Positions 3,001 to 9,000 of a stretch of DNA of 64,000 nucleotides are shown here, in pieces. The stretch is from NCBI RefSeq assembly GCF_003790525.1, contig NZ_CP033636.1, one strand, 5' to 3'. Each line of letters opens with the position of its first letter. Position 1 is the stretch's first letter. The position numbers are program-made. This DNA comes from Escherichia coli. GTDB taxonomy: Bacteria > Pseudomonadota > Gammaproteobacteria > Enterobacterales > Enterobacteriaceae.

Positions 3001-6000
3001 AAACAATGAAGCAGATCTCGGATAAGATTGGTGCCTCTGTAGCAGAAGGTATTGCAACGAAACATGGGGTGAGTGCGTCTCAGATGGCCAGCATTGCTTC
3101 AAATGTTATTCTAAACGCTGGGCTTAATGGAGGTGCTGGAACTGGCAACGGAGCCGGGCTGAAAGCAGCTGTAGCAGGGCAATTGAGTAGCGGCGCATCT
3201 AAGACCAATACAGGCAGTGACTCGCTTTCAAATGACCTTTCAAAAGCAATCACGAATCAGCTTAGCCAGGATTCTGCTTTGACTGACCAGTTCAGTAAAG
3301 CGGCGTCTCAGGTAAGCAGCGATCAGATATCCAATACTAATGCGTTTAAAGAAGCATCGTCGAAAATGAACCAGGCGACACAGACGATGGCGCAAAACAT
3401 TTCTACATCGGTATCGACTAACGCCAGCTCCAATAGTGGAATGAGCCTTGATTCTAAACAAAGCATTAACCTGGACAGGTTCTCCGATTCTATTCGCAAC
3501 AAAAACTTCAGTGATGATGATGTAAGGAATTTTGCTCGTAAGAATGGGCTGGATGAGAATGCGTTTATGGAGAAATTCAACTCCTATAACGATACCTTCA
3601 AGGCCAGTAATCAGCTTGGTTCGCAGCTTCAACGTACTGACGCGCTTGTGGCTGCAACACGAGATTTCAGTGAGCAAAAAATTGCGATTGATACCGCCCG
3701 GGGAGAGACGGCCGAAAGTAATAAACAGGATCTCCGTGAAACCTCCAGCCTGCTTAAAAGTCTGGTTTCCGACTTCGGTGGTAATGCACAGCAGCTGCTA
3801 CCTATCACCAATCAGCTCGACAGAATTTCAGGCGAAGGGTCAGGAATTAATACTATCACTCAGGCACAGGATAGAACTCCTGACAGCGTAAATACGTCTG
3901 GCGTGATGAGTGCGTCACGCGTAGGGGAACTGGGTGGAAGTGTTGATTCGCAGGCTAAACTCGGTCTTTCCTCCAACGCTCAGGACGCGACTCAGCGTGT
4001 CCCTGGAAAAAGTGAAGCTGGCTTTACTCCGTATAACCTTGATAACGCGGGCAAAGGCGATATTCAGGGAATACATAACAACAACGTGGGCCGCACTTAT
4101 TCTGATGAAGAAAGGAATGTGCTCAATTCTCTCAAAACGAATGGCCCTGTACTGAATAATCAGGGTGTAGAGAAAGTCGTCAATTCAGGTCAGGATGTCA
4201 GAAATGCAGAAGGCACATTTAACGATCTGGAAAAGGCTACCGGAGGTCGGGTGGTTGGTGATGGAATGGATCAACGAGCCACTGCTTTGAACAGTATGTA
4301 TCAGAGCGGTCAAGTTCGTGGCTTATCTAATAACACTGATAACTACTTTAGTCGTGTTGCCAACAACCCGAACTTAAGCCGGGACGATAAGCGAGCTGAA
4401 TTGGCACAGCAAGCTGTCTTTACCTATGGTGCCAGCACCATGGCTACCGGTGCCGAAAGAGAGCAGCTCAAAGCGGATACCCAGAAGATCCTTAATGAAC
4501 TGGGTAACTATAACGTTAACTGGAGTATGAATGACGTTCAGAGCATCCATAGCAGTTTCAACACTCATAACAGAGCTGATGGTTCACTTGAGTCAGTCGT
4601 ACGGGCAAACCTAGGAGAGGGTGGGTCGGGCGGTGGTCTCGTTGGTAACCGCACTCAGACCGTCACAGATCGCTTGGTTGGGGAAAAGATAGAGGCCAAC
4701 ACTGAGCGGGGCGCGATTTCTGGTGCGCTACTCGGGGGCCAGCAATTTGTTTCGGATACGCTAACCAGCGTTGGGGCGAAACCGGTAAATGAGATGCTTA
4801 CGGGAGCGGGCATCCTTCAAACCCAGACATCGATAGCAAATGATGCCTCTAACCCTGCAAATATGCCTGATTCTCTCCAGGGTAAAGTCCTTAATCACAT
4901 GCAGATGTCTGATGGCGTCGCAGCTGTAAGTGACCGGTATCAGAGTATTAGCAGCGACGGCGTTTCGACTTATGCGAATGCAGCGCAGAACTCTGAAAGG
5001 GCTATCCGGCAGCAATTGACGGATGACCCACGCTTTGGGCCTCAGAAAGCAGATGAATTCATTCAGTACATGAAGTCAGAGCTGAGCAACACAAATGAGC
5101 CTTACCAGTCACGTGTCGATAAAGCGGATCAGTGGCTTAATGAAAATAAAAGGTAGGTGAGTTTCAAATATAACCTAATGAAAATTAAACGTATTTACTA
5201 AAATATGGTGTTAAACAGTGAAGGCCGCAAAGTATAAATTTGCGGCCTTTTTTATTCATAAACTTAGCTGATTTCTGTACAATCTCGTTCTTTATGTAGT
5301 AGATGTTCCGGCTGAATAGGCACTGAGACACAGGACATGGCAAACAAAGTAAAAGATATTAACCATCCATCTATTAATGATAGAGAACGTCGTGTCTTGG
5401 AAGAACTAGGTATATGTAATGGTGCACACTTTAATAATTTGCTTAAAATTGCCCGCTATCGTCTCAATGCTGGTTATTCCCATGCTGAAACTGTACTTTC
5501 TTTACGCTGCACAGGCTCATACATTGAGCGTACCGTAATGCATGCCCCCAAAAATACCCGTAAAAAACTACGTGAACACCTACAAAAATTTGCTCTAGAG
5601 ACAGAGCAGAATAGCGAAACCGTTTATTCTAATTACAATACTCAGCTCCGTGTAATTCGAGAAAAAAAACAAAAAGAACATTTGATGGCCAAGCGTAAGG
5701 AGTACATTCGCGTTCGGCTAGAATCTTGTAAAACAAGGGGGGAGCGGTTGATGGCGTTCGGTCTAATTGACACTATCGATCCCGAATATATACAGGAACT
5801 GGAAGACCATCTGGCTAAGGTTAGTCATCGTAAGATGTTGGAGGATAATGACCGAAAGGTAAAAGAACGCAATAGACTGTTGAGTGAAATGAAAAAAAAT
5901 TCAGCCCGTCTCACCGAACGAATAATCCTGTCGGAAAAAGAGGAACCAGATGAAGAAGCCTCTCTTCCAATACTGGTACGTAGATATATTCCCGGCGGAC

Positions 6001-9000
6001 GTGCCGCAGAGTTCGCTATTTATGCACGTTCAAACGCTACATTACCTCCACTAGAGATCATTGAGGGTTTTCTAGGGTATCCAGTTGGTGGCCGCGAAAG
6101 ATCGCAGGAAGATCAGCCTAAATCTCCACCGGCCGCGATTATGGTCGCTATGAAGACTGATGGTATAGAAGAAAAGGAGCTTCAGCCGAATATTCCTGAT
6201 GAAACTACTGTACCGGGTAAGCGTAAGGGTAGTAAGACAACTGTCGAGACACGACCAGATCAGGCCTCATTTGCAGAAGCCGTCCGCAACAACTGTTATG
6301 ACCAATGTGTGATTACAGGCTCTAGACTGCGCCAGCGCACTGAGGCTGCTCATCTGATGGAGCATCGTAACGGAGGAGTAGACCATTATACAAATGGGTT
6401 GCTCTTACGCCATGATATACACGATCTTTTCGACGCAAACATGATTGCCATTCATCCGGTGACGTTGGAGGTTAACATTCTCGCTGAAGCTTTGGCGGTA
6501 GATCATGATTTAGCGGCATATCAAGGAGAGTTTATTAAGCCGCTGCGTAAACCCATCAATACTGAATTCCTAAAGCACCGTTGGCAGGTTTTTCAGCACC
6601 GGAACCAAACTGAGCAGCAAGCTTAAGAGACCGGCATGTTTTCTTCCAACTGTGCAATGCTTTGACCCGGGGCAGAAATGGAGAAGCATAGAACTGATAA
6701 TGCGGGCATGCTCTCCGTAAAAGTTACTTTAATTCAGGAAGCCCAACGTTTCATAAGCAGATGATACCTGGTGTTAAGAGCTGCAAGATCAGATTCGGTG
6801 AGGCCGGTGTAATAATTGGTTTTTTGCAAATGTGGATAACCGACCGGGAATAATGATTCGTCGTCATCAAGGCAGATAAATGCTTTAACTCGATGTGAAA
6901 ATACAAAGTCCTCACACTCAGCAGCCCGCACACCTGACTGATTAGGTTTTAAATATACCGAATCGGTAGCACCTATGACTTTGTCTCTATAAGGTAGCCG
7001 GAAAAGAGATTTCAGGTAAGTTATACTGGCACATTCACGCCACGAACTGGAGATGACAATCACCATGGAAGGGCATTTATCCAGTAATTTTTCCACCAAT
7101 GGCATTCGCTCAAAGGTTTCATTTTTGCACCTGTGACAAACCCCATCGAAATCTAAGAAAAGCACGACATGCGAATCAGGGAGAGGGCCCCATAAACCAG
7201 CTGTTGTTTCTTCAGGAACACATACTTCTTCATGAAGAGGGCTTTTCTGCATCAAGAAAGAAGAGAGAATCTTAAATATATTTCTTGCAGAAAAAGACAA
7301 TTTATTACCCCTGAGTCTATGCGAATTTTTTGCGGGGGGGTACCCAAGCTACTCGATGATCTTCTGTAATATCAGGTTGAATTTATTTAACAACAGGAGT
7401 CGGGTTTTGCTCCGGGACATTTTTAGCTATATGGCCATTGTATCGAGGAGGTTGTTGGGTCCATTGATAAAGCTCACCCATCCCGTTACGCTGCTGGATC
7501 CGGCGATTGTACTTTACCATGAAGTTAAATATGTACTTTGCACGTACCTTTGGGGTTTTGCTGTTGTAATCTGCAATCCCTTCAAACACATTGCCCTTGC
7601 GATCAACAATTTTTCTGTAGAGCCACCATGTTCCAACCCAGAAACTAGCGCAAGCATCGTAAGCCAGAACCCGCCACGTTACAGTCGGGAAATGCTTTTT
7701 TATTTCAGGCAGATTGGATGAGTTGATCTGCATCGGGCCAATATCATAAGTGCCGTTAGTATTCCTGCTGAAAGTACCAACCTTACCGCCTTCATTGTCA
7801 AACAACGTAAAAACCAGTTCGGCATCAATTCCGAAGAAGCGGGCGGCATCCGTAATGCACTGAGTGTAAATCTCATCAGGAACGGGAATAGGTTTCACAT
7901 CATCTGCTGGTGGTGTAAACACAACGATTTCTCCACTGAATCTACGTTTTATCTATTCTCCCATATATCTATCGACTTTCTTTCGGCTTTACCCGTTGAT
8001 TTAAGCGTTTAAGCAAAATTCTGGAATTTTTGGGCGTGATAATATTAGTGCTCGATTCAAGGAGCATAAATGAAAAAAATTATTAAGGCATCGGTATTAC
8101 TTCTTTCATTAAGTACCGCCTTCACGATGAATGCCGAGCCGGTTAATACAATGGTACTGCCAGATGCAGCCCGGGATAAGCTCAAAGCCATTGGGCTTTC
8201 AATCGAGCACGTCGAACCCTCGCCAGTAAAAGATATTTTTACGGTGATTTCCAGGGAGGGGGTAAGTTACGTGAGCAAAGACGGAGATTACATTTTTACC
8301 GGAAGCTTATTCCACGTGAAAGGTAAAGATGTGGTAAACACCACTGAGCAGGCCATTTTAATGGGCGTCCGGGAATTCGCATCCAAAACAAAATCCATCG
8401 ACTACAAATCACCAAACGAAAAATACCGGCTTGCTATCTTTACCGATATAACCTGTGGATACTGCCAAAAACTGCATCATGATCTGAAGTCTTATCTTGA
8501 TGCCGGTATTTCGATTAAGTTTCTTGCATTCCCACGTGCAGGACTGAACTCGGTAGTAGCCGGGAACATGGCCAAAATCTGGTGTTCAGCAAAGCCAAAC
8601 GAAGCTCTGGATGCAGCGATGAATCCGGTTTCAACTATCCCGGAAGGACGTCCTGATGAGGCTTGCTTAAACATTATCAAATCGCATTTCCAGGTGGCCT
8701 CAACAATCCCGCTGCAAGGTACTCCTACCATGGTGACACTAAGCGGCAAACCGCAGTTATTTACGGGGTGGCTGAGCCCGGAAAACCTGGTGACCCAAAT
8801 GGGCGCTGCGCAAAAGTAACTTTTCCGACTGTAAGAGGTGTGTATGAAATCTACTTTACTGAGTACGTTAATGCTGGTTGCTGTAGGTGTACAGCCCGTT
8901 TTCGCTGCACAATGTCAGTACGGAGCCTGTGGAACGGAAAACGATCCAGGAATCGTATTTCTGATGTCATCGGTACAAATGGATCAAGGTGAACAACTAA

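Follow-up and report, generated by a model that had tools for sequence, protein, structure and literature searches.

A solitary HNH_2 nuclease gene with an orphan helical N-terminal region in a variable slot of the IncHI2 transfer region

Solitary HNH_2 enzymes and a gene on an IncHI2 plasmid

The closest described systems to the gene considered here are the type IV restriction enzymes VcaM4I (EVE-HNH) and TagI (SRA-HNH), single polypeptides that join a non-catalytic N-terminal module to a C-terminal nuclease of the HNH_2 type and have no cognate methyltransferase. We describe a gene of the same plan, at positions 5337-6626 (plus strand) of a 64,000-nucleotide stretch of Escherichia coli contig NZ_CP033636.1 (assembly GCF_003790525.1), hereafter the window. 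This DNA is IncHI2 conjugative plasmid backbone, typed MOBH and MPF_F. The 429-aa product, here called the HNH_2 protein, shares with VcaM4I and TagI the R..Q..F helix and the C..TG/AxH/NGLL/H..FD motifs of the nuclease. It differs from them in having only 21-23% identity in the nuclease domain, a basic, helical N-terminal module of 250 aa without detectable relatives instead of a PUA-superfamily beta-barrel reader, and a much longer disordered tether of about 50 aa. We favor, at roughly an even chance, the reading that this is an autonomous, restriction-like nuclease that works independently of a methyltransferase, carried as plasmid cargo against phages or rival mobile elements and not as part of the conjugation machinery. 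Because its N-terminal region is no known modification reader we do not file it as a type IV enzyme, although it may work like one.

Other described enzymes share parts of this plan. ScoMcrA, SprMcrA and EcoWI, phosphorothioate-dependent enzymes of SBD-HNH architecture, likewise have an HNH_2-type nuclease, a likeness that is weak by Foldseek and sub-threshold in NCBIfam, but their sulfur-binding domain was not detected in the HNH_2 protein. A precedent for a solitary HNH enzyme directed at incoming plasmids is EcoWI, which forms a dimer and in vivo restricts plasmids that are modified (PMC7461809). The type II enzymes HphI, AlwI and BbrI, placed with HNH_2 in group 6 of the His-Me finger nucleases (PMC5714182), belong to the same PF13391/COG3440 family and recognize DNA through a separate, poorly understood N-terminal domain; they adjoin a cognate methyltransferase, whereas the gene described here does not. 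The homing enzymes I-HmuI and T4 Mob are similar in being solitary genes in intergenic slots, with their own promoter and a DNA-binder, linker and nuclease logic. They belong to another HNH subfamily (PF01844/HNH_3, with NUMOD or AP2), their domain order is opposite, and the locus here bears no sign of recent mobility.

The annotation of this gene as an HNH endonuclease is already known, and mobile elements commonly carry HNH fusions as solitary genes. What is new is the orphan helical superfamily to which the N-terminal domain belongs, the definition of the junction between trhG and a HAD-like gene as a slot with alternative nuclease cassettes in two big IncHI2 lineages, and the evidence for module swapping.

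The nuclease module and the N-terminal region

The open reading frame (ORF) runs from an ATG at 5337 to a stop codon at 6624-6626 and encodes a protein identical to WP_001284752.1, whose sole annotation is 'HNH endonuclease signature motif containing protein'. No other ORF of at least 60 aa overlaps it on either strand. By tblastn the protein is at least 99% identical in 515 PLSDB records and at least 80% covered in 508, and in diverged homologues the proportion of nonsynonymous differences (pN) is well below that of synonymous differences (pS). By these measures it is a real gene and more than a chance ORF. Its nuclease features are as follows.

6219-6623, plus strand, residues 295-429: HNH_2 (beta-beta-alpha-metal) nuclease module with a C-terminal helical extension, found by Pfam, PHROGs, Foldseek and a family profile
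6351-6353, plus strand: CAT codon of H339, the predicted general-base histidine of the AAH motif, which aligns with the 'AsH' of VcaM4I
6393-6395, plus strand: AAT codon of N353, the structural asparagine of the HNH motif (NGL)
6420-6422, plus strand: CAC codon of H362, a predicted metal-ligand histidine (D-I-H..LFD)

Pfam matches HNH_2 (PF13391) to residues 324-373 with an expect value (E) of 3.6e-10 across the whole model (positions 1-66 of 66), and the domain is present in all 48 homologues. The PHROGs family phrog_23050 matches the nuclease module at E 1.6e-18; all matching PHROGs families are labeled 'unknown function' and reach only the C-terminus. A reading of the window from sequence only had placed an HNH-type motif in the C-terminal 80 aa. 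Every motif element that it quoted is there (C320-YDQ-C324, A337-A-H339-LMEH343, N353-GLLL, H362 and F365-D366), but the conserved module is longer, about 135 aa from K295 to A429. In an alignment of 27 homologues, conservation begins upstream of the Pfam match with K295-R-x-G298 and R306-P-D-Q309..F312, and the pattern is the usual one for COG3440/HNH_2, R..Q..F...NC...C-V-x-T-G......A-A-H...N-G-L..R.D.H.L-F-D. H339, N353, H362 and D366 are invariant in all 27 sequences, the first three also in all 18 sequences of a second alignment.

The AlphaFold model of the full-length protein, with a mean predicted local distance difference test score (pLDDT) of 79.7, has a confident beta-beta-alpha core followed by the C-terminal helical extension. 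Strands at 335-339 and 354-358 lead into a helix at 359-366, with pLDDT mostly 85-97 and a dip to about 62-70 at 331-350. The nuclease domain is slightly acidic. In a Foldseek search of the PDB the best matches are TagI (6ghs, E 7e-4) and VcaM4I (6yex, E 1.7e-3), which each align over about 119 columns with a probability of 1.0; weaker matches to EcoKMcrA and ScoMcrA (5zmm) come next. The VcaM4I sequence is also hit by a profile of the nuclease module (E 3.8e-8), the motifs falling in register. By homology the cutter is therefore of the kind that type IV restriction enzymes use, as do certain type II enzymes (HphI, AlwI, BbrI). Its catalytic residues are intact and metal-dependent cleavage of DNA is predicted.

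The region in front of the nuclease, residues 1-294, had been described as a lysine- and glutamate-rich domain of 300 aa. The composition is roughly right (E 11.9%, R 9.5%, K 7.8%), but a single domain of that length is not what the models contain, which is several helical units and a disordered tether.

5364-5546, plus strand, residues about 10-70: compact four-helix unit, with helices at 15-23, 32-44, 49-57 and 60-68
5550-5915, plus strand, residues 72-193: two very long helices, 72-130 and 149-193, by DSSP on both models
5745-5765, plus strand: conserved turn R137-L-M-A-F141-G142-L between the long helices, R(L)xAFG or AWG in N-domain groups A and B
5964-6074, plus strand, residues 210-246: three-helix unit (LxxLVRRYIPG...EF...GFLG), pLDDT about 90
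6096-6254, plus strand, residues 254-306: disordered tether of about 50 aa, rich in Pro, Glu and Ala, pLDDT below 50, its length highly variable in the alignment

A model of the N-domain by itself agrees with the full-length model on this layout, in which the N-terminal 250 aa are all-helical and basic. The four-helix unit is the most confident part of the N-domain; its pLDDT is about 95 in the model of the whole protein and falls to about 90 when the N-domain is modeled by itself. It has an isoelectric point of 9.2 and is present once or twice in other family members; by eye its sequence pattern is helix-turn-helix (HTH)-like, which we offer as a lead. Net charge is +10 over residues 71-196 and +13 over residues 1-196. 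The long paired helices would form a coiled-coil or dimerization element, to judge from the models. Across the family the most widespread element of the N-domain is the three-helix unit, which can be aligned in most N-domain groups; the group A invariants in or near it are L210, L213, I218, G220, F226, P238, F245 and G247.

This region, which had been called uncharacterized, matches nothing known in the searches that we ran. Neither the protein nor an alignment as query found N-domain relatives in Pfam, none were found among PDB sequences, and a Foldseek search of AFDB50 with the N-domain returned only the protein itself and truncated copies. A profile hidden Markov model of the N-domain, scanned against 1.84 billion cluster representatives, matched eight clusters, six of them full-length family members and two of them fragments of this same protein truncated by insertion sequences (IS). 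No modification-reader domain (SRA, EVE, YTH, ASCH, SBD, DUF3427 or winged helix) was found in the HNH_2 protein. A modification reader was also considered, and rejected, for an HNH_2 paralogue encoded near hns on IncHI2 plasmids and for the family member P0021, both of which have beta-rich N-termini without a Pfam domain. Most plausibly, given the charge and fold of the models, the N-terminal region binds nucleic acid and dimerizes the enzyme.

The slot between trhG and the HAD gene

The HNH_2 gene lies 3' of trhH-trhG, with mobI, mobH and traD about 10 kb upstream. It had been placed beside the transfer region; the cassette that holds it in fact lies in a variable slot inside that region, Tra1. 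The other part of the placement, between a terminator after a TraG-like gene and a convergent HAD-like gene, agrees with what we find.

1203-5156, plus strand: trhG, the left flank outside the cassette, encoding a 1317-aa TraG_N protein of the mating-pair apparatus
5220-5250, plus strand: intrinsic-terminator-like hairpin closing the trhH-trhG operon, with a 12-bp stem containing 6 GC pairs and then a T-run
5254-6743, 1.5 kb: variable cassette that differs between IncHI2 lineages, made up of the promoter gap, the HNH_2 gene and a 3' spacer
5255-5283, plus strand: sigma-70 promoter-like sequence TTCATA-17-TACAAT, 9 of 12 matches
6734-7300, minus strand: convergent HAD_SAK_2 (PF18143) gene, the right flank outside the cassette, conserved in IncHI1 and IncHI2

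The -10-like TACAAT that had been assigned to the gene is present, but as a promoter the match does not rise above chance, with two promoter-like sites near the gene where shuffled sequence gives 4.6. That the nuclease gene stands alone is borne out by the gaps on either side of it (5157-5336 and 6627-6733), neither of which holds a partner ORF on either strand. No methyltransferase was found in the cassette or its flanks, and none is evident by eye among the window's large ORFs, on which family libraries were not run. The window contains no second copy of the gene.

The boundaries of the cassette are sharp. Against plasmid NZ_CP030080.1 (L003), blastn aligns 4300-5253 at 96.4% and 6744-7400 at 89.3%, with nothing between. 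Sequence shared with the other IncHI2 lineage thus stops at 5253, just beyond the terminator, and resumes at 6744, at the 3' end of the HAD gene. In about 423 PLSDB IncHI2 records of that lineage, the slot holds an unrelated minus-strand pair instead of the HNH_2 gene (L003 3954-5681), a 353-aa protein (WP_000902297.1) with a classic C-terminal HNH motif (PF01844, weak) and, downstream, a 168-aa YrhA-family protein (WP_000654195.1, NF038335). By analogy this pair looks like a nuclease toxin with its immunity partner. The role of YrhA as an immunity protein is our own assumption, for which a literature search gave no support. In the IncHI1 plasmid pHCM1 (L004 7781-8026), trhG is separated from the HAD gene by a 247-bp spacer without a gene. 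The IncHI1 flanks are only about 69% identical to the window, as against 89-96% for those of the other IncHI2 lineage, and a closely related empty allele of the slot was not found. The GC content of the cassette is 44.2% and that of the N-domain part 41.5%, compared with 48.4% for trhG.

As IncHI1 has no gene in the slot and the other IncHI2 lineage has a different cassette there, we regard the gene as accessory cargo rather than transfer machinery. A conjugation (Tra1) gene was considered and rejected, since the gene is absent from pHCM1 and replaced in about 423 IncHI2 plasmids typed conjugative. Altogether it is missing at this slot from about 45% of IncHI2 plasmids, typed conjugative by PLSDB. 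Where it is carried, a minority of plasmids have insertion sequences in or just upstream of it, among them the loci L013 (NZ_MW264512.1), L014 and L015. In a Salmonella clade the ORF is split by IS5 at about residue 258, ISVsa5 and ISKpn26 have entered the promoter gap of some plasmids, and truncated products (P0052 and P0053) end at about residues 36 and 79. These disrupted versions persist in plasmids typed conjugative. The gene is therefore dispensable, yet it is intact in the great majority of its carriers. At least one carrier, pMCR1-51133, has the name of an mcr-1 plasmid. A parallel is reported from IncHI5, where eight plasmids have IS elements interrupting hnhc, an HNH gene of the backbone (PMC6339943).

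An IncHI2 plasmid can have as many as three genes of the HNH_2 type. The two further ones, both solitary and uncharacterized, lie near hns outside the window, at 5182-5997 and 7548-8405 of NZ_AP025800.1 (L002), and encode proteins of 271 aa and 285 aa. The 285-aa paralogue (WP_000784387.1) shares the HNH_2 variant of our gene, with 44% identity across a stretch of 131 aa that takes in SPDQ..F...NC..CVVTG...RTEAAHL, and the 271-aa paralogue (WP_001641519.1) is more distant at 31% over 117 aa. Their N-termini are shorter than, and unrelated to, that of the HNH_2 protein and contain no Pfam domain; the N-terminus of the 285-aa paralogue is beta-rich.

A third plasmid lineage (L005) carries a 57%-identical allele, P0003, in the same slot, and comparison with it tells the history of the two halves of the gene. 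Synonymous divergence (dS) between the window and L005, by the Nei-Gojobori method, is as follows.

trhG: dS 0.34
HAD gene: dS 0.17
Lytic transglycosylase gene: dS 0.28
HNH module, residues 295-429: dS 0.29
N-terminal 250 codons: saturated, pS 0.74, with 51% protein identity

By blastn, homology to L005 resumes at about codon 291, and within the otherwise unalignable 5' half the three-helix unit is the sole island of nucleotide identity, at 74%. The 5' half of the gene and the promoter gap thus diverged much earlier than their surroundings. Since synonymous sites are saturated there alone, while the flanks and the HNH module have dS of about 0.2-0.3, this indicates recombinational replacement of the N-domain. 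Fast protein evolution or relaxed constraint of the N-domain was rejected as an explanation, because the synonymous saturation is confined to the N-terminal part.

The wider family behaves in the same way. P0049 and P0050 carry the same N-domain on two other HNH_2 variants, making three variants in all. Conversely, the same HNH variant (50-63% identical) is fused to at least seven N-terminal types. By local hhalign, types A, B, C and E are divergent homologues, with probabilities of 95.5% for A-B (over 229 columns), 98.3% for B-C and 97.7% for C-E, and for types D, F and G no relation to the other types was detectable. Two syntenic phage-like elements offer a second example of a swap, with group-A and group-B alleles at the same position, a weaker one because their flanks are only 68-79% identical. 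These are the contigs L012 (about 100 kb) and L022 (about 62 kb), in which the family member stands in the order giant ORF of more than 1970 aa, NUDIX, YafQ-like toxin, HNH_2, Peptidase_S74 tailspike, GpA-type terminase and portal.

Some features of the surrounding DNA stand apart from the question of the slot. The HAD_SAK_2 gene has a comparatively high omega of 0.44 between the IncHI2 lineages (85% aa identity), against 0.05 for trhG. An IS3-family element lies within window positions 1-1188 (with a 296-aa transposase ORF at 256-1146) and ends at about 1188; homology to reference IncHI2 plasmids begins at 1189, 6 bp before the trhH stop codon. As the element sits in the extreme 3' end of trhH, just upstream of trhG, it could be polar on trhG. 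Further along, reading by eye only, we take about 14600-52100 to be a multidrug-resistance region rich in IS26, as it contains six IS26-type transposase ORFs of 240 aa, of which four are identical. Its other ORFs, likewise identified by eye, include IntI1-like N-termini, two AadA-type proteins, a CmlA-like exporter, a Sul-type enzyme, hygromycin/aminoglycoside phosphotransferases, a TEM beta-lactamase and a 1009-aa Tn3-family transposase.

Relatives and possible roles

The relatives of the gene are tied to mobile elements, and their neighbors bear on what it might do.

P0007: flanked by a type I restriction-modification system and by Mokosh MkoC; HipA, Fic and a further HNH_2 gene are close by
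P0008: adjoining hsdMSR and a NERD-type helicase, in an integrative island
P0004: with ccdAB and Septu PtuA/PtuB (6 kb) upstream and a PifA homologue (E 2e-238) two genes downstream
P0049: on a plasmid-like contig with Csy3/Csy4
P0026: on an SSU5/pHCM2-like phage-plasmid, among Dam, RNase H, DHFR and thymidylate-synthase genes and on the opposite strand
P0027: on a plasmid of Serratia, where it immediately follows the gene for a Rep3 initiator
P0005: in a small chromosomal islet with a resolvase gene
P0009 and P0012: upstream of genes for a tailspike and for a GpA-type terminase
P0050: on a plasmid-like contig with a ParE-like gene

Recognized defense genes are found in about half of the contexts sampled. 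In the sub-clade of P0004, P0005 and P0049, a conserved ORF of about 91 aa abuts the start of the HNH gene (L006 7716-7991, L009 7725-7997, L020 7723-7998); it is 41% identical between L006 and L009 and is placed like the controller protein of a restriction system. We considered this ORF as a hidden partner and rejected it, as it is absent from the window and aligns to the N-domain by hhalign with a probability of only 0.2%.

The case for a restriction-like conflict nuclease rests on the type IV-type cutter, the lack of a partner, the accessory slot, the exchanged N-terminal module and the relatives in defense clusters. We also count the net charge of +13 over the N-terminal 196 aa and the retention of the intact gene in about 510 plasmids. 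The sequence-only reading had proposed a sensor fused to HNH as a single-gene defense or exclusion protein. The homology of the nuclease domain to type IV restriction enzymes, the defense neighbors of relatives and the exchange of N-terminal modules support the idea indirectly; the sensor role of the N-domain does not follow from them.

In the model that we propose, the basic helical N-terminal module would pick the target and probably dimerize the protein. The flexible tether of about 50 aa would let HNH_2 cut at a distance from the bound site, and two protomers would jointly make a double-strand break. Since no protective methyltransferase or immunity gene accompanies the nuclease, its substrate would have to be absent from the DNA of both host and plasmid. 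It could be a foreign modification of the bases or the backbone, a particular structure or class of sequence, or DNA that becomes exposed only through a trigger that depends on the invader. Recombination that joins another N-terminal module to the conserved nuclease would generate new specificities. DNA binding, dimerization, the class of substrate and a protective phenotype are what we infer here.

Several results pull the other way. PADLOC-DB v2 gives only generic 'HNH' matches confined to the nuclease domain (PDLC04132, E 1.7e-5; PDLC03546, E 0.029) and no match to a system-specific anti-phage model. NCBIfam has none above its cut-offs, PT-DNA_restrict scoring 16.5 bits against a cut-off of 180 and in the HNH part only. 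About half of the sampled contexts are not defense islands (Rep3, phage-plasmid DNA metabolism, terminase, chromosomal islet), and the immediate IncHI2 neighborhood has no recognized defense gene. The insertions that split the ORF or the promoter gap in a minority of plasmids mark the gene as dispensable. In the literature, we found no experimental or functional study of the protein or its N-domain family; a search by accession gave no match, and papers on IncHI2 and HNH merely repeat the annotation.

The main rival is a selfish, free-standing homing-type endonuclease, which would cut the cassette-free trhG-HAD junction or an equivalent site and be copied in by repair. The N-domain would then bind a long DNA site while the tethered HNH did the cutting, much as in enzymes like I-TevI or I-HmuI. 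We think this unlikely on balance, but it would account for a solitary gene in an intergenic slot that has sharp boundaries between conserved convergent genes, stands empty in IncHI1 and differs in the other lineage. It would also suit the relatives, which often lie antisense to both neighbors (in the thymidylate synthase/DHFR/Dam region, or between hsdM and a helicase gene), and the different alleles that occupy one slot in the two syntenic phage-like elements. Free-standing homing enzymes likewise consist of a binding module, a flexible linker and a nuclease. Against this, the HNH_2/COG3440 type is characteristic of restriction enzymes, and the homing enzymes known to use HNH have PF01844/HNH_3 joined to NUMOD or AP2. 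In our protein Pfam finds HNH_2 and nothing else, with no NUMOD, AP2 or IENR DNA-binding module, and we found no homology to a characterized homing endonuclease. The near-identical gene is confined to one plasmid backbone lineage and shows no sign of recent spread to others. Exchange of the N-domain within one slot would alter site specificity though the site is unchanged, and one plasmid can hold several paralogues of the same nuclease variant.

Two further roles are possible and less likely. A toxin or addiction nuclease, or a weapon between plasmids, which would harm plasmid-free cells or competing replicons and whose carrier would be spared by autoinhibition through the N-domain or by an unlinked plasmid factor, is quite improbable. 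This idea draws on the alternative occupant of the slot with its resemblance to a toxin-immunity pair, on relatives that adjoin ccdAB, YafQ- or ParE-like and HipA genes, and on the presence of up to three HNH_2 genes per IncHI2 plasmid. It is opposed by the empty gaps on both sides of the gene, where an immunity or antitoxin ORF would be expected, and by the finding of no secretion or delivery signal or domain. Polymorphic toxins, moreover, vary the C-terminal toxin on a constant N-terminus, the reverse of the HNH_2 family.

The least probable of the four is a structure- or site-specific nickase that helps in DNA processing (conjugative processing or establishment, replication or recombination, or phage-plasmid packaging): it would suit the place within Tra1 about 10 kb from mobI, mobH and traD, the relatives after a Rep3 initiator, two genes upstream of a GpA-type terminase or among phage-plasmid replication and nucleotide-metabolism genes, and what we take to be a loose likeness of an HTH-like unit, coiled coil and small C-terminal unit to small-terminase or partition-type DNA-binding proteins, but it fits poorly with conjugative-typed plasmids that lack the gene at this slot (IncHI1 and about 45% of IncHI2) or keep it only in IS-disrupted form, with contexts too heterogeneous for a single housekeeping role and with a rapid N-domain exchange atypical of a housekeeping enzyme. 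Nor is the gene a conserved conjugation accessory, as IncHI1 and the other IncHI2 lineage do without it here.

Returning to the conflict nuclease, a bolder version of that reading is tempting, and we hold it tentatively, as distinctly less probable than the general one. Here the N-terminal region would be a new class of invader-recognition module and, with the tethered HNH_2, would form an undescribed single-gene defense or plasmid-warfare system, retargeted by swapping the N-terminal module. It would be carried by a major multidrug-resistance IncHI2 lineage, by SSU5/pHCM2-like phage-plasmids and by enterobacterial defense islands, and the trhG-HAD junction would be a dedicated 'nuclease slot' stocked with alternative weapons.

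Among the major vehicles of multidrug resistance in Salmonella, E. coli and Enterobacter are plasmids of the IncHI2 group. If the gene proves instead to be a selfish, homing-type element, it would be an unusual case in a conjugative plasmid, with a restriction-enzyme type of HNH domain. If the HNH_2 protein does restrict phages or plasmids, it would affect the choice of phages usable against plasmid-bearing strains and which plasmids coexist with IncHI2. It could also help to explain the split of IncHI2 into two lineages with different slot cassettes. The orphan N-domain would then be a new module for recognizing DNA or invaders and, should it read modifications, a possible reagent.

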